A stretch of DNA of 64,000 bases from Candidatus Latescibacterota bacterium (lineage in GTDB: Bacteria > Latescibacterota > UBA2968 > UBA8231): assembly GCA_965204725.1 (NCBI GenBank), contig OZ242005.1, positions 1,856,001-1,920,000 on the forward strand. Direction: 5' to 3'. The notes beneath the pieces are model-generated. The model worked only from the letters and a program-made list of their open reading frames with translations. It had not been told where the DNA came from and made no database searches. The translations under genes and the position numbers were made by a program. Numbering within the stretch: the first letter of the stretch is position 1; every line of letters starts with the position of its first letter. Below, piece by piece: positions 52,540 through 64,000 of the stretch.

Positions 52540-52557
52540 AAAAGAAAGAGTGAAACC

Positions 52558-52914
52558 ATGGCTGAACCAATTACTGTGCAAGTGTCTAACATCATCGGCG
52601 GCCCTCTGTGCGTATCCACCAGCGACGGCCAGCGTCTGCACGATAAGATCGCTCCGCTCTTGGAGCAGCAGACGCCGGTTGTCCTCTCCTTCAAGCGGGT
52701 GGACATCCTTATCGCCGCGTTTCTGAACGCGGCCATAGGCCAACTCTACGGCGAGTTGCCCGAGGACCGCCTTGACGAGTTGCTTTCCTTCCGCGACTTG
52801 GCTACAGACGACCGCGAAATGCTCACCCACGTCGTCGAAAACGCCAAGGCGTATTTCCGCAGACCCCAAGACTTTGACCGGGCATGGCAAGAGGAACTGG
52901 GCGATGAGGAATAA
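52558..52914 (+). CDS. STAS-like domain protein (DUF4325)
   Basis: CVSTSDGQRLH, VVLSF..VDIL..AFLNAAIGQLYG. Confidence 0.82.
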   Translation: MAEPITVQVSNIIGGPLCVSTSDGQRLHDKIAPLLEQQTPVVLSFKRVDILIAAFLNAAIGQLYGELPEDRLDELLSFRDLATDDREMLTHVVENAKAYFRRPQDFDRAWQEELGDEE

Positions 52915-52972
52915 GGCATATAACCGAGCGACCTATTCATTAAACTTGAGACTCTCGGCCGCCTGTCGATGA
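52904..52972 (+). pseudogene. Truncated start of the STAS partner gene (possibly a PIN domain)
   Basis: 22-codon [15 protein letters not shown]... overlapping the STAS end, with its stop overlapping the MTase ATG. Confidence 0.35.
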
Positions 52973-55900
52973 CGCCTCCCCGCAAAAAGCTCATCGAAGT
53001 CGCCCTGCCGCTCGACGCCATCAACGAGGCCGCGGCGCGGGAGAAGTCGATTCGGCATGGGCATCCGAGTACGCTGCATCTGTGGTGGGCGCGGCGACCA
53101 TTGGCCGCGGCGCGGGCGGTGATTTTCGCGCAGATGGTGAATGATCCGTCGGCTCGACCCGATCTGTTCCGCACGGAGGCCGACCAAGACAAGGAGCGCG
53201 AGCGGCTGTTTGGCCTTATCAAGGAATTGGTGCAGTGGGAGAATACCACTGACGAAAGGGTGTTGCAGCAAGCCCGCGACGAGATTTGGGCAAGCTGGCG
53301 GCGGACCTGCGCCGATAATGCCGATCATCCCCGGGCCGCTGAATTGTTCAGCCCGGATGCGCTGCCGGCCTTTCACGATCCGTTTGCCGGCGGCGGCGCG
53401 TTGCCGCTCGAAGCGCAGCGATTGGGGCTTGAAGCTCATGCCAGCGACCTCAATCCGGTGGCGGTGCTCATCAACAAGGCCATGATCGAGATACCGCCTA
53501 AGTTCGCCGGGCAGGCGCCGGTGAATCCGGCGTCTCGCGAGGAAAAGGGCCTGATCGAGCGCGCATGGAAGGGGGCGCAGGGGCTGGCCGAGGATGTGCG
53601 CTACTATGGGCAGTGGATGCGCGACGAGGCCGAACGGCGCATTGGGCATCTGTATCCGCAGGTTGAGATTGCCGAGGAGATGGTGCGGGAGCGGCCCGAC
53701 CTTAAACGCTACAAGGGCCGCAAGCTGACAGTGATTGCGTGGCTGTGGGCGCGGACAGTGAAAAGCCCCAACCCGGCGTTTGCCGATGTGGATGTGCCGC
53801 TGGCCTCGACCTTTATGCTTTCGACGAAGAAGGGCAAGGAGGCATACGTTGAGCCGGTGATTGAGGGGCGTGGGTATCGGTTTGCGGTGAAGGTGGGAAC
53901 GCCGGAGGATGTGGACGCGGCGAAGGCGGGGACCAAGCTCGCACGGGGAGCGAATTTTCGCTGCGTGATGTCAGGGACGCCGATAGCGGGCGACTACATC
54001 AAGGCCGAGGGGAAGGCCGGGCGGATGGGGGCACGGCTGATGGCTGTCGTGGTTGAGGGAGACCGCGGGAGAGTGTATTTGGCACCGACGCCGGAGCACG
54101 AGGGAATTGCCGCGCTGGCGGAACCGACGTGGAGACCAGAAAATGAGCTTATTGGCAAATGCCGGGACCAGCTACCGCTCTATGGCATGAATACTTTTGC
54201 CGACCTCTTCACCCCCCGCCAACTCGTCGCCCTGACCACCTTCTCCGACTTAGTGGCGGAAGCGATGGAGCGCGTCAAAAACGATCACCCGGGATCGAGG
54301 GCGTCTCGCCCTCGGCAAAGCGACGAGAGCGAGATCCCCTCCCCCCGAGGAACTGAGACCTCCGATGCGTCATCCCCAAGGGTAACCCCGTCCACTCCTT
54401 TCCACCGCACTCGTCTTCCCCACTTTGAAGCTGGCGAGGTCCCCCAGCACATTTGTTTTCGCCTCTCCGACAGCCTGCCGCAGAACCTACTCTACGAATG
54501 GGAGGAGGAATTGTCGCGGCTCGCAGAAGATGACCGCAAGACCGAGCGTCGCCGCCGGGTCGAAGCCGTGCTGGATCGCAGCTACGGTGCGTGCTGGCTG
54601 CGTCGTCCCGAGGTAGCGGCATTGGTGCGTGACGCCTTGCTCCACTTCGATGGCGTACGCTATCGGCTGCACGAATGGACGATCATGCCCAATCACGTAC
54701 ACGTGCTGGTATCGCCTCAACCGGAGATCCCCCTGTCCAGCGTGGTGCATTCGTGGAAGTCCTATACCGCAAAGCGGGCGAACGAAGTGCTGAAACGGAA
54801 GGGCTCTTTCTGGCACAGGGATTATTTCGATCGTTTCATGCGTGATGAAGAGCATTATCGGGCAACGGTCGAATACATCCGTCACAACCCGGTGAAGGCC
54901 GGCTTGTGCAGAAGCGAGGAAGAATGGCAGTGGAGCAGCCAAAACCCTCCCCCCTCTCCCCCCTCTCCCCCCTGGGATCGAGGGCATCTTGCCCTCGATA
55001 AGGAGGGCGAGACGCCCTCCCTCCTTACTACCCCGACCCCGGTTGACGACGACCAGCCCCTGCGCGACGGGGGCACCGGCGCGACAGCGTATGCCGAGGC
55101 GGTGGGGCTATATTTGGCGTTTGCACTGTCAAAGATTTCAAACGTCGGCTCATCTCTTGCTTCTTGGATGAATGATCGCGGCGCATTTCGGGAGACTTTC
55201 GCTCGACAAGCCCTACCAATGGTCTGGGATTTCGCTGAGGCGAATCCGTTCACGGACGCTAACGGCAGTTTAGAGACAGCCCTTGATAAAGGGGCAATGG
55301 CGATCAATGCGTTCCCTGCACTAAATGCTGGCTCAGGAAATCAACTCGACGCAGCCAACCAAACGATCAGTACCGGCAAGTTGGTCTCCACTGATCCGCC
55401 GTACTACGACAACATCGGCTACGCCGACCTGTCGGACTTCTTCTACGTCTGGCTACGCCGGGCAGTACGGTCAATCTATCCCGATTTCTTCGCTACACTC
55501 GCTGTACCGAAGGCCGAAGAATTGGTCGCTACTCCATACCGGCATGGCAACAAGGAAAAGGCGGAGACCTTTTTCCTTGCCGGCATGACCGAGGCGATGC
55601 GTCGTCTCGCCGAGCAGTCGCATCCGGCCTATCCAGTCACCATCTATTACGCTTTCAAGCAGTCCGAGACCAAAGGCGACACCGGCACGGCGAGTACAGG
55701 CTGGGAAACATTTCTTGATGCCGCTCTTCGCGCTGGTTTCAAGATCAGCGGTACTTGGCCGATACGAACAGAGGGGTCTGGGAGGATCCTTGCAAAGGGC
55801 ACCAACGCCCTCGCCTCGTCCATCGTCCTCGTCTGCCGCCAACGCCCTACCACCGCACCCATGGCCACTCGCCGCGAATTCGTCGCCGCGCTCAGAGCCG

Positions 55901-56577
55901 AACTCCCCACTGCCCTCGCCCACCTACAATCCGGCAACATCGCCCCGGTTGACCTCGCCCAAGCCGCCATCGGCCCCGGCATGGCCGTATTCACCCGCTA
56001 CGCCCAAGTGCTCAACGCCGAGGGCAACCCCGTCTCAGTGCGCGAGGCCCTAGCCCTCATCAACCAGATACTCGACGAAGTGCTCGCCGAGCAAGAAGGC
56101 GACTTCGACCCCGACAGCCGCTGGGCCTTGGCATGGTTCGAGCAGCACGGCTTCGACGCGGGCGAATACGGCGTCGCCGAAACCCTGTCCAAAGCCAAAA
56201 ACACCAGCATCGCCGGCATCGTCGAGGGCGGCATCCTCGCCTCCAGCGCCGGCAAGGTGCGCCTGCTGCCCCCGGACGAATTAGCCGCCGACTGGGACCC
56301 AAAGGCCGACGACCGGCTCACCGTATGGGAGGCCGTCCACCATCTCATCCGCGCCTTGGAAACCGGCGGCGAACCCGCCGCGGCGCGGGTCGTAGCCCAA
56401 CTCGGCGCACAGGCCGACATCGCCCGCGAACTCGCCTACCGCCTCTACACCATCTGCGAACGCAAACGCCGCGCCGCCGAAGCCCTCTCCTACAACAGCC
56501 TAGTCCAAAGCTGGCCCGAAATCGCCAAGCTGTCGCGGCAGGAGATGCTGGTCGAGGGCGACCTGTTCGGGGATTAA
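52969..56577 (+). CDS. DUF1156 adenine DNA methyltransferase carrying an in-frame RAYT transposase insertion
   Basis: [22 protein letters not shown], motif I DPFAGGG, motif [10 protein letters not shown]; insert at about aa 440-691. Confidence 0.92.
54286..55041 (+). mobile_element. REP-flanked RAYT (Y1/HUH tyrosine transposase) module, in frame with the MTase
   Basis: LPHF..G...[13 protein letters not shown] motif [43 protein letters not shown]; family A hairpins at 54291-54314 and 54974-55024. Confidence 0.88.
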
Positions 56578-56591
56578 GCAAGAGGAACCTT

Positions 56592-57773
56592 GTGAATCAA
56601 CGGGCAGACATCTACAGCCGAAACATTGTATTGGGACGAGGCTTGGCTCCGGTCCCAGAGCGTCTGCTCCTTGCTCATGCACGAGGAGAAGTTCTATTTA
56701 TTGCCGGGGCTGGCGTTTCAATGGATGCAGGATTGCCGAACTTTCGCGAGCTAGTCGTAAAGGTGTATAAGGAACTAGATCCAGTGGTGCATTCCGTTAT
56801 TTCAAATAACAGTCAAGGGCCTCAAGACTTGACCGATGAACAAAAGGCCGAGGTTAAGCGTTTCGACAAAGGCGAATACGATGTCGTCTTGGGTATGCTC
56901 GAGCGAAGAATCGAAGGCCAAGAGAAGACTCAGAGTCTAGTCAGGCAGAAGATCGGAAACATACTCCGCCCCACGGGCCTAAAGCCTGCTCCCATTCATC
57001 GCGCCCTGATGCGTCTATCCGATCGCGGCGGTACAGTAACAATCATCACGACGAATTTCGACCTCCTCTTTGAAAAAGCCGCTAGCAACATGAAATTTCC
57101 GATCCAGACGTACACACTCGGCGGAATACCCAGACCAACGCTGAGAGCAGAATTCAGCGGCGTCCTGCATATACACGGCACCTTAGACCGCAACCCTCAG
57201 CGCACGTCTGACCTTATCGTTTCCGACCAAGATTTCGGCGAGTTCTATTTGCGCCGGCGAATAGCCTCTGATCTGATTTACGACGCCGCACGTTTGTATA
57301 ACTTGGTCCTCGTGGGCTATAGTGCGAACGACCCACCGATGAGATACCTGTTGAGTGCGGTCGCTGCGGATACGGCGCGTTTTCCCGATCTCAAGGAACG
57401 GTTCATATTCGTCGGAATGAGCGAAGACGATCCAGTAGAATTAGCAGATTGGCGGGCGCGTGGTATTACACCGATTCAATATATCACTCAAGGCCAAGAT
57501 CACTCCCAGCTTCAGAACACATTAGCTCAATGGGCCGAATTCTCTATGTTCAACAGCAGTACGCGCCCCATCGACAGTACGCTAAAGAAAATTGTGCAGT
57601 CTAAGAGAACAGATGCCAGCCAAGACAATCGCGATTTATTCGACCACTTCATTCGCCGTAGTGCGATTGAGCCAAACGAGCGTGAACGCTTGACTGCCCT
57701 ACTTTACGATTACCAAGCAAATTTGGAATGGGTAGAAGCGGCCTCAGACGTTTGGGAGGAAAGCGAGTCGTAG
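56592..57773 (+). CDS. SIR2 (sirtuin NADase) domain, Dsr1-like N-terminal part
   Basis: VLFIAGAGVSMDAGLP, ITTNFD, LHIHG, VGYSANDP, WRARGITPI; GTG start after AGAGGA. Confidence 0.85.
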   Translation: MNQRADIYSRNIVLGRGLAPVPERLLLAHARGEVLFIAGAGVSMDAGLPNFRELVVKVYKELDPVVHSVISNNSQGPQDLTDEQKAEVKRFDKGEYDVVLGMLERRIEGQEKTQSLVRQKIGNILRPTGLKPAPIHRALMRLSDRGGTVTIITTNFDLLFEKAASNMKFPIQTYTLGGIPRPTLRAEFSGVLHIHGTLDRNPQRTSDLIVSDQDFGEFYLRRRIASDLIYDAARLYNLVLVGYSANDPPMRYLLSAVAADTARFPDLKERFIFVGMSEDDPVELADWRARGITPIQYITQGQDHSQLQNTLAQWAEFSMFNSSTRPIDSTLKKIVQSKRTDASQDNRDLFDHFIRRSAIEPNERERLTALLYDYQANLEWVEAASDVWEESES

Positions 57774-60461
57774 ATGAAACTGCTCCAGCTTAGTCTGAAT
57801 ACAAGAGATCAAGCCAAGGTGCATTCCACGGCTGCCCTTTTCAAAGGTCGCTTAGAAAAAAAAGAAACCATTGAATGGGCACTGGGTTTTGGTCCCAATG
57901 ACACACTCAAACGATGGGCGATCCTATATCTGCTAAGCACATCGGAAGGAATTAACCTCCGCGAACCTTGGCGTTCCGCTTGGCGTCTGATCGAAGAATT
58001 TTGGGACGAACCCGTTCATGAAGAACATTACGGACGGCTAGGCGTTTATGATGTTCAGGAACGCTTGCGCTCCGGGGAGCGGTCTGGCGCACTTGTGTCG
58101 GCTATCGTCGATCTCGTTGCACCGAGGCTATCGATTGAAGCCTACGGACATTGGGAACTCCAACTCCGCAAACCTCCCAAGCGGCCAAAGACGTTTCGCT
58201 ATCTTTTTCGGGCTAGTCTGACAAGTGGAGAAATTGTCGATCCAGCTTTTTGGGGCTTGCAAGAACTAACTGACGGCGAATTCCTCATTTCTCTCGCCAA
58301 CGCGTTAGATGCCGCGGTCATACGCGGACTAGATATTGGGCGACGCATCGGATGGAGACCACATCTTTTTCTCAAGCGCGTGTATTACGTATCAGAGTCT
58401 GAACGCGGCGAAGGAAATGACGAACCTGATGAGTGTGCGCAAGGAATTGCACCATCGGTAAAGCTACTTTACTCGATCGTTTCGCGGCTCGTCGATATAG
58501 ATCGCCCCACCGCGCTTGGTTTTATTAGCCGCTGGAAACGGCAAGATTCTCCGATCCATTTGCGGCTCTGGTCCGCTATGTCGCGTGATTCTCAGATTAC
58601 ACCCGCTGCTGAGGTCGGTGATTTTATCCTTCACTTAAAAAAAGAAGCCTTCTGTGACGTGGAGCACCATCCAGAAATTGCCGAACTACGCGCCCGGCAC
58701 TTCTCCGAATTAGATGACGCCACACAAAAGGCGATCACTAAAAAGATACGCAGGGGGCCATCTCGCCATTTATGGCCTAAGAATGCAGAAGCGGAACTCA
58801 TTGAGAAAGGCCGCCGCCACTGGATTGTCCGGGAACTGAAACGCATTGAAGTCGCCGGGGCTACCCTCCCGCAACACGATAAAATCTGGCTGGAATCGAA
58901 CATTGGACGATTTCCCGCTTTAGCCAAAATGAACCGAATCGATGAGGGATTTTTGGAATCCCCGCAGGGGCACAGAGTTCCGAGCAATCCCGATCGCGCC
59001 TTGGACTCCCTTGAAGGTATTGCTCGGCTGCAAGTACTGGAACAGAAACTCTCAGCCCCGCTCCATGGATGGGATGATGACTCAGCAGGCAGCGCATCGG
59101 ATTGGATAAAAGAAGAAGGCAACCCCATGCGGGTTTTACGGGATATGGAGTCAAGCCCCGATGGTGGAGCGGAGTTCCCACAGGTCTGGGAACGCTTGGG
59201 TTGGGCGCATTCTAGTTCAGAGAACCAAATTCAAAGAACCTGTGTTCGCACACTACTTGTCCTTCTCGCAAAGTTGCCCGAAAAAACTCTATCCCAAGCC
59301 ATCCAAGGCATTTCCCATTGGCTCAGTTGTTGGGAAAAAGCCATCGTCGTCGCGCCGGAATGGCCTGTGGTTTGGTGCCGTGTTTGGCCATTAGCAGTCA
59401 AGGCAACTAATGCAATGCAGCCATCAAACCAAGAGCCCGATCTTAACATTGTCATGCCGGCCGCTTCCGACGGCTCTACCGATCTGGATACATTAAACAC
59501 ACCCGCGGGAAAACTTGTTGGCGTATTCTTAGCTGCTTGTCCGAATCTAGAAAAAAACCCTCGGCCATTTAATGACGCTAGCGACTTGGGAAAAATGAGG
59601 AATGATGTTATCAACGCTCCGAGACATTCGGGCTTGATCGCCAAGCATCGGATGATAGAGGAACTAAGCTACTTTCTATCCGCCGACAAAGAATGGACTA
59701 AAGAGCACCTCATTCGTCCCCTTCGCAGAGACGATGCCGGCGCATTGGCCCTCTGGCGTGCGGTCAGTCGTCGGACGCGATTCAAAAACGTATTGAACAT
59801 TATTGGTGACGACATGGTGGAGCGAACTAGGGATGACCAACTCGACCGCAAGACCCGCCATTCGCTTGCCTTCAGCCTTGTGGTCGAGTCTCTTCATGCT
59901 TTACGAGAAAGACGCGACCCCGCGGTTGCACAAGATCGCATTCAGCAAATGATACGGTTGCTGGAAGCCGAAGTGCGTACATACTGTGCGGCAGCGATAA
60001 CTCGCTTTGTAAGCGACCTTTCGGAAAATAACGAGCATTCACCAGAGCATCTGTTCCAAGCAGCAGTCAAGCCCTTCCTGCAACAAGTCTGGCCTCCAGA
60101 GCACTCGCTGGTGTCGCCGGGGATCAGCAGGAGACTCTCCAAGCTGCCAGCACTTACTCACGGTGAATTCGCCAACGCCGTGGACACTATCGAGCGTTTC
60201 CTCATGCCGTTCGATTGCCGGACAATGTTCAATTATGGACTGTACGGCGGCGACGACAGGGATCCAAAACTGCCAATGATTGACGACGAAGCCAAAGCCG
60301 AAGCACTGTTGCGCCTTCTCGATCGGACGGTCGGGACCGCGGACAACGCGGTAATCCCTTACAATCTGGGCGATGCCCTTGAGCAGGTGCGGAAAGTCGC
60401 GCCCAATCTCGCTCGGACGCAAAAATATCGTCGGCTCGCAACGGCGGCTCGGCGGGCGTGA
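57774..60461 (+). CDS. Large helical protein, probable sensor/C-terminal partner of the Dsr1-like sirtuin
   Basis: 895 aa; ATG immediately follows the SIR2 TAG in the same frame; LNTPAGKL motif, Trp-rich helices. Confidence 0.65.
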   Translation: MKLLQLSLNTRDQAKVHSTAALFKGRLEKKETIEWALGFGPNDTLKRWAILYLLSTSEGINLREPWRSAWRLIEEFWDEPVHEEHYGRLGVYDVQERLRSGERSGALVSAIVDLVAPRLSIEAYGHWELQLRKPPKRPKTFRYLFRASLTSGEIVDPAFWGLQELTDGEFLISLANALDAAVIRGLDIGRRIGWRPHLFLKRVYYVSESERGEGNDEPDECAQGIAPSVKLLYSIVSRLVDIDRPTALGFISRWKRQDSPIHLRLWSAMSRDSQITPAAEVGDFILHLKKEAFCDVEHHPEIAELRARHFSELDDATQKAITKKIRRGPSRHLWPKNAEAELIEKGRRHWIVRELKRIEVAGATLPQHDKIWLESNIGRFPALAKMNRIDEGFLESPQGHRVPSNPDRALDSLEGIARLQVLEQKLSAPLHGWDDDSAGSASDWIKEEGNPMRVLRDMESSPDGGAEFPQVWERLGWAHSSSENQIQRTCVRTLLVLLAKLPEKTLSQAIQGISHWLSCWEKAIVVAPEWPVVWCRVWPLAVKATNAMQPSNQEPDLNIVMPAASDGSTDLDTLNTPAGKLVGVFLAACPNLEKNPRPFNDASDLGKMRNDVINAPRHSGLIAKHRMIEELSYFLSADKEWTKEHLIRPLRRDDAGALALWRAVSRRTRFKNVLNIIGDDMVERTRDDQLDRKTRHSLAFSLVVESLHALRERRDPAVAQDRIQQMIRLLEAEVRTYCAAAITRFVSDLSENNEHSPEHLFQAAVKPFLQQVWPPEHSLVSPGISRRLSKLPALTHGEFANAVDTIERFLMPFDCRTMFNYGLYGGDDRDPKLPMIDDEAKAEALLRLLDRTVGTADNAVIPYNLGDALEQVRKVAPNLARTQKYRRLATAARRA

Positions 60462-60790: not shown

Positions 60791-60893
60791 ACTCGTCGCC
60801 GAAGCGCACCGCAGGTTCGCCAAGCTGTCGAGGCAGGAGATGCTGGCCGAGGGCGGGCTGTTCGGCAAAGACAATACGGGAGGTGCAACATGA
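60777..60893 (+). pseudogene. Chimeric 38-aa remnant: presumed HEPN start fused to a duplicate of the MTase C-terminus
   Basis: [30 protein letters not shown]; 60817-60865 matches 56522-56570 at 45/49 nt. Confidence 0.6.
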
Positions 60894-61735
60894 ACACATC
60901 GAATATGACTTTCACTGAACGAATCGCAGCATATACATGGCGGATACTCAAACACTCATGGGAGTATAACGTCCGGTTGGGCGAGGAGACGCTGACTGAT
61001 CTACTCACTCTGAATTTCATGCGCTTTAAGCCGAGTTATTACATACTACTTCCAATCAATAAACAAGAGGAATCGAAGATAGGTGCTGACTTGGATATCC
61101 GAATCCACGCAGGAGATCATCGGGCCTACTGGTTTGCAGTGCAAGCCAAGAAGCTATTTCCGCCTAATAAGAGATACTCTGGGTGCTACTATACTTTCAA
61201 AGTAAAATCGTCGGGACCCTCTCAGATAGACATTCTTGAGACGTACTCTCGGAGTGTAGGTGCCATCCCATTTTATCTTCTGTACAACTACGTAGATCAG
61301 CGCAATATGCAACCATATTGGCACTGCTGTCAGTGTCTCGACAAAGAACAACTGGGTTGTACCCTAGTACCTAGCTGGACCATTCGCCGAGCGATCTCAA
61401 CTCGCAGAGGCAGAAACTTCAAGTGGATTCACAAATCATGCGACGCATTGCCTTGGCGTTGCCTTTTTGACTGCTCTAAGGGACGAAACCACCAATTGCT
61501 GCCCTCAGCCTGCCGTAGTCTGTCCATGTTTCACGAATCATCCCAACAATCGGACGATGACCAGAATTACGACTGGGTAAACTTTGAACCAGTGGACGGT
61601 GCTTGGCCGGAATGGCTGTGGGAACAACAGGGCTCAACGTTGTCGGCTGAAGATCGTCAGCGGTTGTGGGGAGACCTCGGTGAGGCTGTCGAGATACCCC
61701 GTCGTCTTCTTTTGGTCAAGGGGGGAACGGAATGA
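60890..61735 (+). CDS. Putative PD-(D/E)xK nuclease-fold protein (DUF6615-like)
   Basis: GEETLTD, EESKIGADLD, FAVQAKKL, QIDIL, PFYLLYN; lower GC than the flanks. Confidence 0.65.
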   Translation: MNTSNMTFTERIAAYTWRILKHSWEYNVRLGEETLTDLLTLNFMRFKPSYYILLPINKQEESKIGADLDIRIHAGDHRAYWFAVQAKKLFPPNKRYSGCYYTFKVKSSGPSQIDILETYSRSVGAIPFYLLYNYVDQRNMQPYWHCCQCLDKEQLGCTLVPSWTIRRAISTRRGRNFKWIHKSCDALPWRCLFDCSKGRNHQLLPSACRSLSMFHESSQQSDDDQNYDWVNFEPVDGAWPEWLWEQQGSTLSAEDRQRLWGDLGEAVEIPRRLLLVKGGTE

Positions 61736-62423: not shown

Positions 62424-62665
62424 TTCTGCGGCTCCCGCTGCGGCCGGGAATCGAGGGCGTCCCGCCCTCAACGAGGGCAAGATGCCCTCGATCCGTGGAA
62501 GGCGCTTCTGCGGCTCCCGCTGCGGCCGGGAATCGAGGGCGTCCCGCCCTCAACGAGGGCAAGATGCCCTCGATCCGTAGAAGGCGTTTCTGCGGCTCCC
62601 GCTGCGGCCGGGATCGAGGGCGTCCCGCCCTCGACGAGGGCAAGATGCCCTCGATCCGTGGGAAG
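62424..62665. repeat. Tandem array of three ~82-bp units, each containing a family A REP doublet (BIME-like)
   Basis: Units start at 62424, 62506 and 62588: TTCTGCGGCTCCCGCTGCGGCCGGG(A)ATCGAGGGCGTCCCGCCCTC..CGAGGGCAAGATGCCCTCGATCCGT. Confidence 0.9.
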
Positions 62666-62713: not shown

Positions 62714-64000
62714 ATGGCTATTACCAATCAAGACCGCGTCGGCAAAGCCCTCGAACTCCTCAAGGCCGGGCTCGGCCCCTTTGTCGAGCGCGAGGTGCAA
62801 AACAAAATCGAGGCCGGTCGCGTCCAGCTAGACGTAATCCGGCGCTTTGTCGATGATCCACACCTGACGGACAAGCCCATCGCAAAATGGGACGTGGCCG
62901 CGCTCCTCAAGCTGATGTGGGAAACGTGGAACGACGTGTTCCGCAGTGTGCTGGGCCGGGTTGAGCGCAGCCTCGTCAGCGAAATCCGCGACCAACGCAA
63001 CAAGTGGGCGCACCAAAACAGCTTCTCCAGCGACGATGCCGACCGCACCCTCGACTCCATCGCCCGCCTGCTAACAGCCATCTCCGCGCCACAGGCCGAC
63101 GAGGTCCAGCACCTGAAGATGGAACTGCGCCGTCTGGTTTTTGAAGAGCAGGCGCGCACTGAACGCCGCCGCGGCGCGGGCACCACCGTTGAGAGCCAAG
63201 TCACCGGCAGCCTAAAGCCTTGGCGCGAGGTCGTGGCCCCGCATCGCGACGTGGCCAGCGGCGGCTACCAACAGGCCGAATTCGCCGCCGACCTGTGGCA
63301 GGTCCATCTCGGCCAAGGAACCGACGAGTACCGCAATCCAGTAGAATTCTTTCGCCGCACCTACCTCACCGAAAGCCTGAAGAGCTTGCTGAGCGGAGCG
63401 ATGCAGCGGCTAAGTGGCCAAGGCGGCGACCCGGTGGTGGAGCTACAAACCAACTTCGGCGGCGGCAAGACCCACTCCATGCTGGCCCTGTACCATCTAT
63501 TCTCAGGAATGCCAACCGGCGAGTTGCTGGGCATCAACGACCTGATGGCGGCGAGCGAAATCGCCGAGCGGCCCGAGCACGTCAAACGGGTCGTGCTGGT
63601 CGGCACCAAAATCTCGCCCGGCACCCCGTCGACCAAGGACGACGGCACCGTGGTCCGCACACTGTGGGGCGAACTGGCTTGGCAACTCGGCGGCAAGGCG
63701 GCCTTCGACAAAGTTCGGCAAGACGACGAGCGCGCCACCAACCCGGGCGACACCCTCCGCGAACTAATGAACGAATACGGGCCGTGCCTCATTTTGATCG
63801 ACGAATGGGTCGCCTATGCCCGCCAGTTGCACGACGACGCCGACCTGCCGGCCGGCCGCTTTGAAACCCACTTCAGCTTTGCCCAAACCTTGACCGAATC
63901 CGCCCGAGCGGCGAGCCGCTGTCTGCTGGTGATTAGCTTGCCATCCTCAGATACGGCGGCCTCTCCCCACGCCCAAGGCGAAGACGAGGAAGTCGGCGGC
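62714..64000 (+). CDS. Swt1-like HEPN + DUF499 ATPase (partial, runs off the window; not in the ORF track)
   Basis: MAITNQDRVGKALELL, RNKWAHQ, PWREVVAPHRDV, AEFAADL, LQTNFGGGKTH, LIDEWVAYAR. Confidence 0.9.
   Translation, partial: MAITNQDRVGKALELLKAGLGPFVEREVQNKIEAGRVQLDVIRRFVDDPHLTDKPIAKWDVAALLKLMWETWNDVFRSVLGRVERSLVSEIRDQRNKWAHQNSFSSDDADRTLDSIARLLTAISAPQADEVQHLKMELRRLVFEEQARTERRRGAGTTVESQVTGSLKPWREVVAPHRDVASGGYQQAEFAADLWQVHLGQGTDEYRNPVEFFRRTYLTESLKSLLSGAMQRLSGQGGDPVVELQTNFGGGKTHSMLALYHLFSGMPTGELLGINDLMAASEIAERPEHVKRVVLVGTKISPGTPSTKDDGTVVRTLWGELAWQLGGKAAFDKVRQDDERATNPGDTLRELMNEYGPCLILIDEWVAYARQLHDDADLPAGRFETHFSFAQTLTESARAASRCLLVISLPSSDTAASPHAQGEDEEVGG

Follow-up and report, generated by a model that had tools for sequence, protein, structure and literature searches.

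A 64,000-nt stretch of the genome of a Candidatus Latescibacterota bacterium (contig OZ242005.1, positions 1,856,001 to 1,920,000; hereafter the window) carries hmaB, the gene for the DUF1156 methylase of an Hma defence system. Within this gene, and in frame with it, lies a REP-associated tyrosine transposase (RAYT) between hairpins of its cognate repetitive extragenic palindromes (REPs). The whole is one open frame of 1202 codons on the + strand (52969-56577), in which 252 codons are additional to the HmaB/DUF1156 frame (residues 440-691, 54286-55041). We regard it as probable that this REP-RAYT-REP cassette is a non-splicing internal domain, lodged in frame in a permissive linker of HmaB (site B) and made only together with the host protein.

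Reading frame and anatomy of the insert

The insert begins after ...AMERVKND (D439, 54283-54285) and ends before V692 (55042), without any stop or frameshift across its 252 codons (Table 1). A preliminary description of the window, made from the sequence alone, had placed a RAYT and its REPs in frame within a DUF1156 methylase, between motifs I and IV. Exactly the same interval, 54286-55041, was recovered here. It had also read the left REP and the right REP doublet as translated linkers, as is the case for the hairpins at 54297-54313, 54980-54996 and 55003-55019. The outer REP arms (54292-54313 and 55003-55024) are 91% complementary. Pfam detected DUF1156 at residues 12-82 and Y1_Tnp at residues 565-639 of the 1202-aa protein. 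The PADLOC HmaB model matched the same protein with 1543 bits, the match being split in two stretches.

Table 1 Features of the nested RAYT, its host gene and the neighbouring genes in the window.
Feature	Position	Strand	Basis or remark
HmaB/DUF1156 N6-adenine defence methylase with nested RAYT	52969..56577	+	Open reading frame (ORF), Pfam, NCBIfam, PADLOC
DUF1156 N-terminal domain, residues 12-82	53002..53214	+	Pfam PF06634, 107.9 bits
Methyltransferase motif I, DPFAGGG	53377..53397	+	D, P, F, G, G invariant in 51 collinear homologues
252-codon insert at methylase site B	54286..55041	+	Alignment against empty orthologues
Left REP hairpin GAGGGCGTCTCGCCCTC, read as GSRASRPR	54297..54313	.	Peptide at least 90% conserved in 51 homologues
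Degenerate second hairpin of left REP doublet	54325..54346	.	Repeat family D2; comparison with G007 doublet
RAYT (Y1/HUH) core, residues 478-657	54400..54939	+	NF047646; 4ER8 by sequence and fold
HUH motif H576-V-H578	54694..54702	+	Invariant in both alignments (51 nested and 62 mostly stand-alone relatives)
Tyr motif YIRHNP (Y636)	54874..54891	+	Y and N invariant in both alignments
Right REP doublet, inverted, translated (hairpins 54980-54996 and 55003-55019)	54980..55019	.	Single-stranded DNA (ssDNA) fold -22.3 kcal/mol, z -6.5
Methyltransferase motif IV, DPPYY	55393..55407	+	D-P-P-Y invariant in 51 homologues
DUF4325 (STAS-like) gene, upstream of HmaB	52555..52914	+	
Dsr1-like defence gene, two abutting ORFs, between HmaB and HmaC	56598..60461	+	
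DUF6615 gene after Dsr1-like ORFs	60890-61735		
HmaC start (HEPN_Swt1 and DUF499 ATPase)	62714..64000	+	Continues past the window, then HmaA

The RAYT appears to have no start of its own. The preliminary description had reported the lack of an in-frame Met upstream of the RAYT core, after the left REP. This lack was confirmed and extended to GTG and TTG, the sole near-cognate codon there being ATC at 54334. The earliest canonical in-frame starts within the RAYT are TTG at 54511 and GTG at 54568, both past the first strand of the fold. RAYTs are expected to be stand-alone extragenic genes with their own start; the window RAYT is single-copy, though it is nested in a 1202-codon frame. Splicing elements were not detected either: Pfam gave no Hint/intein match at E ≤ 0.01 in the 1202-aa protein, and no intron family reached the Rfam threshold, the sole Rfam match in 53800-55500 scoring 23.6 bits against its cut-off of 42.

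Identity and predicted structure of the RAYT

The RAYT scored 84.5 bits against the NCBIfam model REP_Tyr_transpos (NF047646; cut-off 80), with profile positions 27-146 of 146 matched. By sequence, 4ER8 was its only match in the PDB, with HVH aligned to HMH and YIRHNP to YIYINP. Y636 of the latter motif is presumably the nucleophile, as in the TnpA-REP literature. When the RAYT segment was modelled in isolation, a predicted local distance difference test score (pLDDT) of 93.7 and a predicted template modelling score (pTM) of 0.88 were obtained. The top Foldseek match of this model was again 4er8_A (E 3.2e-8, TM 0.59/0.65), and the fold also resembles 2XM3, 2F4F and 2VJV.

The full-length AlphaFold model had a mean pLDDT of 70 and a pTM of 0.35. 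Within it, the RAYT blocks reached means of 69-92 and were placed between a helix at 414-437 and a helix at 703-716. The REP-coded stretches plus spacers (residues 440-482 and 661-691) had pLDDT values below 50. The models thus suggest that the RAYT is a self-contained domain, hung on two floppy tethers that are encoded by the REPs.

Nested RAYTs in related genomes

The 31 genomes of the genus were searched with the RAYT profile, and matches at E ≤ 1e-5 were found in 12. Four matches were above the family cut-off, all of them in long frames (1203, 1217, 1241 and 1288 codons). The 18 weaker matches were in frames of 134-302 codons. Orthologous methylases have two lodging sites, site B after ...ERVKND and site A after ...PVNP, at about residue 190. 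Site B is occupied by a type 1 RAYT in G000, by a type 2 RAYT, ~50% identical to that of the window, in G044, and by a type 1 RAYT between arrays of translated REPs in a paralogous HmaB of G008. Type 2 RAYTs are found at site A in G013 and in both copies of G040.

Both sites are empty in 8 of the 13 tabulated orthologues. The empty site, expected from the preliminary description in DUF1156 homologues of about 950 aa, was found in frames of 970-1020 codons, which read ...RD-AANADLPxD-DRPLRDGG in the alignment. Three further orthologues, otherwise intact, have in-frame insertions at site B that consist of REPs and no RAYT. A 992-codon hmaB copy of G007 (L026) has a REP doublet with the left junction and frame of the window, G008:C111 (L017) has REPs with junctions resembling those of G044, and the second copy of G040 (G040b, L022) is a possible third case. 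These REP-only insertions look like scars of RAYT losses in which the frame was kept.

In G040 (C2:150-176 kb; L022, L021/L037), two hmaB-RAYT genes lie 5.7 kb apart and their RAYT cores are 99% identical. A stand-alone type 1 RAYT with its own flanking hairpins is found ~10 kb upstream of this pair. The native empty site A (window ~53530-53560; orthologues L010-L014) reads ..CCGGCGTCCCGCGAGG.. (NPASRE), and a core of 9-10 nt in it recurs at the centre of the REP hairpin (GGGCGTCCCGCCC). Coincidence, an old remnant and a target are all possible explanations of this similarity.

More widely, long proteins were searched with the RAYT region (1526 candidates of 661-2104 residues), and 323 matched at the threshold of E ≤ 1e-10. 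Of these, 120 were listed. By anchor motifs, 70 of the listed proteins have the RAYT at site B, 12 have it at site A and 2 have one at each; the site of the other 36 was left unassigned, these being fragments, distant hosts or proteins with missing anchors. Source names include Chloracidobacterium, Caldilinea, Gemmataceae, Tectomicrobia, Methylococcaceae and Bacteroidales. Some hosts are not DUF1156 proteins: IspG with two RAYTs, a MiaB-like radical-SAM enzyme, an AAA_21 ATPase, a 4Fe-4S protein and a creatininase-family protein. RAYT pairs at sites A and B also occur in some DUF1156 methylases. The proteins with double RAYTs or unusual hosts are P0002, P0004, P0051, P0114, P0126, P0145 and P0226.

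Relatives of stand-alone size are common as well. Among the best 150 cluster representatives, 135 were of at most 403 residues and 15 were longer than 440. Species-representative genomes yielded 27 RAYT loci: DUF1156 frames enclosed two of them, 23 were in frames of 158-331 codons, and the remaining two had frame lengths of 495 and 652 codons. A FastTree phylogeny was calculated from 255 RAYT cores (122 nested, 89 of stand-alone size and 44 unclassified). The nested and stand-alone states are interleaved on it, with at least 16 state changes; the nested set was picked by length, and the transition figures describe this sample and not nature. The seven nearest relatives of the window RAYT in the tree are all nested.

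Two metagenome-assembled genomes (MAGs), labelled Binatota and Thermodesulfobacteriota, contain loci (L031 and L032) that are 92% identical at the nucleotide level. The identity covers 6.2 kb and ends with the stop codon of a nested hmaB-RAYT gene, and both have the REP doublet family of the window genome. If the labels are right, this hints at transfer between phyla.

Selection and co-descent

The HUH and Y..NP motifs are kept at the correct spacing in 118 of the 120 listed long proteins. In an alignment of 51 collinear homologues, these motifs as well as motif I and DPPY are invariant, and conservation of the peptide GxRASRP, which the REP encodes, is 90% or more. The median identity of 67 collinear site-B homologues to the window protein was 0.74 for the N part, 0.60 for the RAYT (gapless) and 0.67 for the C part. 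It was 0.41 and 0.29 for the two linkers, which have many gaps.

Most RAYT pairs across lineages are saturated. The reading of nonsynonymous to synonymous substitution ratios (dN/dS) therefore relies on the pairs L031/L032 and L037/L038 and, cautiously, on G000/L031. The nested pair L031/L032, which is unsaturated (dS 0.15-0.43), had a dN/dS of 0.11 for the RAYT (dS 0.15) and of 0.18 and 0.10 for the methylase parts. The stand-alone pair L037/L038 had a dN/dS of 0.17.

RAYT and methylase identities were correlated across the 67 homologues (rho 0.49), with discordant cases such as P0011 (methylase 0.65, RAYT 0.78) and P0110 (methylase 0.76, RAYT 0.53). A moderate correlation with such discordances seems more in keeping with cassettes having been exchanged between methylases than with strict co-descent.

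The REP population

Hairpins of the pattern GAGGGCRNNNYGCCCTC were found 14 times in the window, versus none in 100 shuffles, and 175 times in the chromosome. Of the 104 units that these 175 hairpins form, 71 are doublets and 33 singles, and they occupy 102 loci. The hairpins are highly uniform: GAGGGCGTCCCGCCCTC or its complement accounts for 82 copies and GAGGGCAAGATGCCCTC or its complement for 87. The RAYT itself is flanked by hairpins of this same dispersed family. A REP doublet folds into one long hairpin and resembles a compact REPIN. The Y1 transposase of the insert is the only one in the 5.43-Mb assembly (one PF01797 match at E ≤ 1), and a tblastn search of the genome with the RAYT returned the insert itself as the sole match.

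Slightly more than a third of the units (35 of 104) lie in stop-to-stop frames of at least 300 codons, a count that includes the two REP units on either side of the nested RAYT. In 15 other such frames that were examined, the REP was within the first 0-185 codons, upstream of the likely start, and these 15 therefore look extragenic. One orthologous spacer has a REP doublet in G000 and none in G007, at a divergence too great to tell gain from loss. A tandem trio of REP doublets of the same family, ~82 nt apart, is situated just upstream of HmaC (62436..62653).

The same hairpin flanks type 1 RAYT relatives in MAGs labelled Binatota, Thermodesulfobacteriota and Foliamicus. The stems next to nested RAYTs vary between lineages as paired changes (GAGGGCG/CGCCCTC, GCGGGCG/CGCCCGC, GCGGACG/CGTCCGC, GCAGGCG/CGCCTGC), and the pairing stays perfect. 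Since pairing is kept through compensatory changes, the DNA structure is conserved as well as the peptide.

Interpretation of the nested cassette

In the mechanism that we propose, the cassette, lodged in an inter-domain linker, would be an ssDNA HUH/Y1 enzyme with its cognate hairpin in inverted orientation on both sides, and it would lack a promoter, a ribosome-binding site and a start codon. The RAYT would therefore be produced as an internal domain through the translation of HmaB and in no other way, and the methylase on either side of it would stay intact and under purifying selection. Displayed on HmaB, it would be the only enzyme of the cell for ~100 dispersed REP units. Cassettes would have entered DUF1156 methylases repeatedly and other large proteins more rarely. 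In an intact restriction-like system a broken methylase would do harm, and for this reason only frame-keeping insertions in permissive linkers would survive. The action of the domain on REPs in trans, and the cause of the preference for DUF1156 hosts, we infer.

Part of this was foreseen in the preliminary description. Its proposal of a mobile, non-splicing domain made only with the methylase is favoured by the missing start, the lack of intein and intron, the two sites, the two RAYT lineages and the interleaved tree. Its further suggestion, that the cassette gains shelter from the cost of losing its host gene, is plausible for a complete Hma system. However, the whole syntenic system was deleted in G007, where only a 121-codon 5' piece of hmaB is left (L062, G007:C2:30000-46500). 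The RAYT-bearing gene can therefore be lost.

Several points tell against this reading or complicate it. That the HmaB-RAYT fusion is made and stays whole is a prediction from sequence, as none of the 23 sequencing runs found is listed as RNA. The catalytic methylase region is poorly predicted in the full-length model, and because of this and the low pTM the packing of RAYT and methylase is unreadable from it. The hairpins flanking the RAYT have a GTCTC loop (4 genome copies), whereas the loop of the dispersed family is GTCCC (82 copies). In G007, 219 hairpins of the window's REP family were found, yet no Y1_Tnp at E ≤ 1. Conversely, the nested-RAYT genomes G013 and G040 have just 6 and 11 cognate hairpins; the same pattern gave 30 in G044 and 91 in G008. 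REP abundance does not track a resident RAYT, and REPs outlast the RAYT-bearing gene, as in G007. The correlation of RAYT and methylase identities, and the finding of PF06634 in 104 of the 120 listed long proteins, also fit a functional fusion that is inherited as a unit.

Alternative explanations

REPs are repeats where short-read assemblies break, and depth spikes occur at 54257-54358 and 54971-55021, so that a contig mis-joined at the REPs had to be considered, as in the preliminary description. Assembly and excision were checked with Logan contigs of four sequencing runs (X3, X5, X7 and X10). Contigs of three other studies bridge both junctions, which contradicts a chimera: single contigs span the whole insert in X10 (54202-55348) and X5 (54222-55400), and X7 contigs bridge each junction separately. 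These contigs differ from the window by ~1% of letters and all carry the insert, while an X3 contig is identical to the window and may be the source of the assembly. As collinear homologues are also present in many genomes, the chance of a chimera is negligible. The contigs also bear on an excision switch, by which the cassette would exit and re-enter the DNA from single strands like IS200/IS605, a mix of interrupted and restored methylases then amounting to phase variation. Empty orthologues are scar-free, as precise excision would leave them, and the inverted hairpin ends resemble IS200/IS605 ends. However, no joint skipping 54286-55041 was found in the contigs of the four runs (a weak point, as contigs drop rare variants), the strain variants of the three other studies all have the insert, and both the frame and the whole RAYT are under purifying selection while inserted. 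We consider such a switch quite improbable. Three joints that were listed (e.g. 54020->55219) have short sides and probably derive from paralogous methylases, not from excision. The strain variants in the RAYT core, three synonymous and two non-synonymous, are too few to use.

In a further alternative, the cassette is a neutral accident that arose once, by chance insertion in frame, and is in decay, with the RAYT and/or the methylase inactive. The genome has one copy only, the second hairpin of the left doublet is degenerate and the flanking hairpins are one loop base off the dispersed family. The 252 stop-free codons, the dN/dS of ~0.1 in nested pairs, the catalytic motifs retained in 118 of the 120 listed proteins, the invariant methylase motifs and the occurrence of the arrangement in 323 long proteins make it very improbable. 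A one-off decaying insertion, which the preliminary description had envisaged as well, is contradicted by recurrence and dN/dS. A co-opted fusion, in which the HUH domain is a working part of the Hma methylase or defence and is kept for the benefit of the host, deserves more weight but is still unlikely. The preliminary description had offered such a domesticated methylase-HUH fusion as its second reading. The domain might bring the enzyme to ssDNA hairpins or tie self-marking to REPs. The arrangement is long-lived, with 67 collinear site-B homologues from many phyla, and the invariant catalytic residues, the share of DUF1156 hosts, the conserved GxRASRP peptide and the correlated identities would all be expected. 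Against it, most HmaB orthologues of the genus work without an insert, the RAYT is found at differing sites and differing RAYT lineages at the same site, and the same RAYT lineage is present in the unrelated IspG, radical-SAM, AAA_21, 4Fe-4S and creatininase proteins. Stand-alone relatives are equally close to the window RAYT (62-66% identity, versus 68% for nested ones), and the solo-REP in-frame scars indicate that the RAYT is losable with the methylase frame retained.

The preferred reading, a non-splicing internal domain, can be taken further, although we do so tentatively and think it doubtful. Nested RAYTs may have a distinct lifestyle, in which they enter, or recombine between, permissive linkers of defence methylase genes and use the expression of the host. 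Because defence genes move between genomes, the cassette would ride with them across phyla. If true, REP/RAYT systems would gain a horizontal route that they are thought to lack. In a stronger version, Hma itself would use the tethered HUH domain, coupling the recognition of hairpin ssDNA to methylation or to self/non-self discrimination.

Comparison with known systems

The E. coli REPtron (yafM product, 4ER8) has the same HUH and Tyr motifs and fold, and the window RAYT scores above the RAYT cut-off. Both are present as one copy per genome, with inverted cognate hairpins on both sides and ~100 dispersed copies. Unlike the REPtron, the window RAYT is an internal domain without a start codon and not an extragenic gene, and its flanking REPs are translated. 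In the available text of Bertels and Rainey (10.1101/2021.07.10.451892), RAYTs are described as single-copy, residing in the same extragenic space, vertically inherited, absent from horizontally moving elements and without signs of self-mobilisation. Compared with the RAYTs described there, differing sites are occupied here in orthologous defence genes.

IS200/IS605 elements (IS608, ISDra2 TnpA) share the Y1 HUH enzyme, the subterminal hairpins, the fold (2XM3, 2F4F, 2VJV) and the behaviour of a unit that enters new sites. However, the genome has one copy of the whole cassette, and the score against NF033573 was 33.5 bits (cut-off 55). The cassette is also without TnpB and lies in frame in its host gene instead of disrupting it. 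Inteins and IStrons are likewise mobile elements tolerated within an important gene whose product is functional. Unlike them, the window element is not spliced and would stay in the mature protein.

Rickettsia palindromic elements and intragenic miniature inverted-repeat transposable elements are, according to the available text of PMC10969869, palindromes that lie in frame in coding genes and are translated without destroying the protein. These are short non-autonomous repeats, whereas here ~180 folded residues of an enzyme are carried along with the repeats. HmaB corresponds to the 'BR-MTase' of the DUF499-centred, BREX-related Hma system. In the parts available of the two sources (10.1101/2025.10.09.681413; PMC11232893), it has a DUF1156 N-terminus, an N6-methylase core in which strand 2 is followed by a large insert, and helical domains at the C-terminus. 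The window protein has the same methylase architecture and the linked HmaC and HmaA, but the architecture as published in those parts is without an HUH domain. HUH, transposase, RAYT and TnpA are absent from the main text of 10.1101/2025.10.09.681413, its supplements not being covered.

Literature searches returned no description of a nested RAYT, in agreement with the preliminary description, which knew of no functional account. The searches did not cover supplements, and Figure S1 of 10.1101/279083 or Supplementary Data S3 of 10.1101/2025.10.09.681413 might list such proteins. In the available text of Quentin et al. (10.1101/279083), 'unexpectedly long' Y1 proteins were discarded as fusions or annotation errors. 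If long Y1 proteins are discarded in surveys, the nested class is missed.

An enzyme without a gene of its own, repeatedly lodged and with both partners under purifying selection, contrasts with the picture of RAYTs as extragenic and non-moving. If confirmed, it would be a third in-gene lifestyle for mobile elements beside inteins and self-splicing introns, that is, one of keeping the frame and remaining part of the protein. Two questions arise as well, whether defence islands carry REP/RAYT between genomes and whether a methylase-tethered HUH nuclease acts on the hairpins of the genome.

The surrounding Hma system

The DUF1156 domain and motifs I (DPFAGGG) and IV (DPPYY) that characterise HmaB are all present. 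The 'anti-phage-associated DUF1156' equivalog model NF042963 gave 109.5 bits and did not reach its cut-off of 1000, which indicates that the window protein is of a different DUF1156 subfamily. Downstream of HmaB, full-length HmaC (1120.8 bits) and the HmaA helicase (1621.1 bits) were detected, and the Hma system around the nested RAYT is complete.

HmaB is separated from HmaC and HmaA by the Dsr1-like and DUF6615 genes. The two Dsr1-like ORFs consist of a SIR2_2 part (56598-57773) and a Dsr1 C-terminal part (57774-60461). Dsr1 models are single proteins of ~1250 residues; in the window, either one gene has been split or two genes are a natural form of the system. A stand-alone Y1 transposase of another kind (L030; G046:C13, minus strand, 268-codon frame) has a long low-complexity run of Gly, Pro and Thr between the HUH motif and the C-terminal part.

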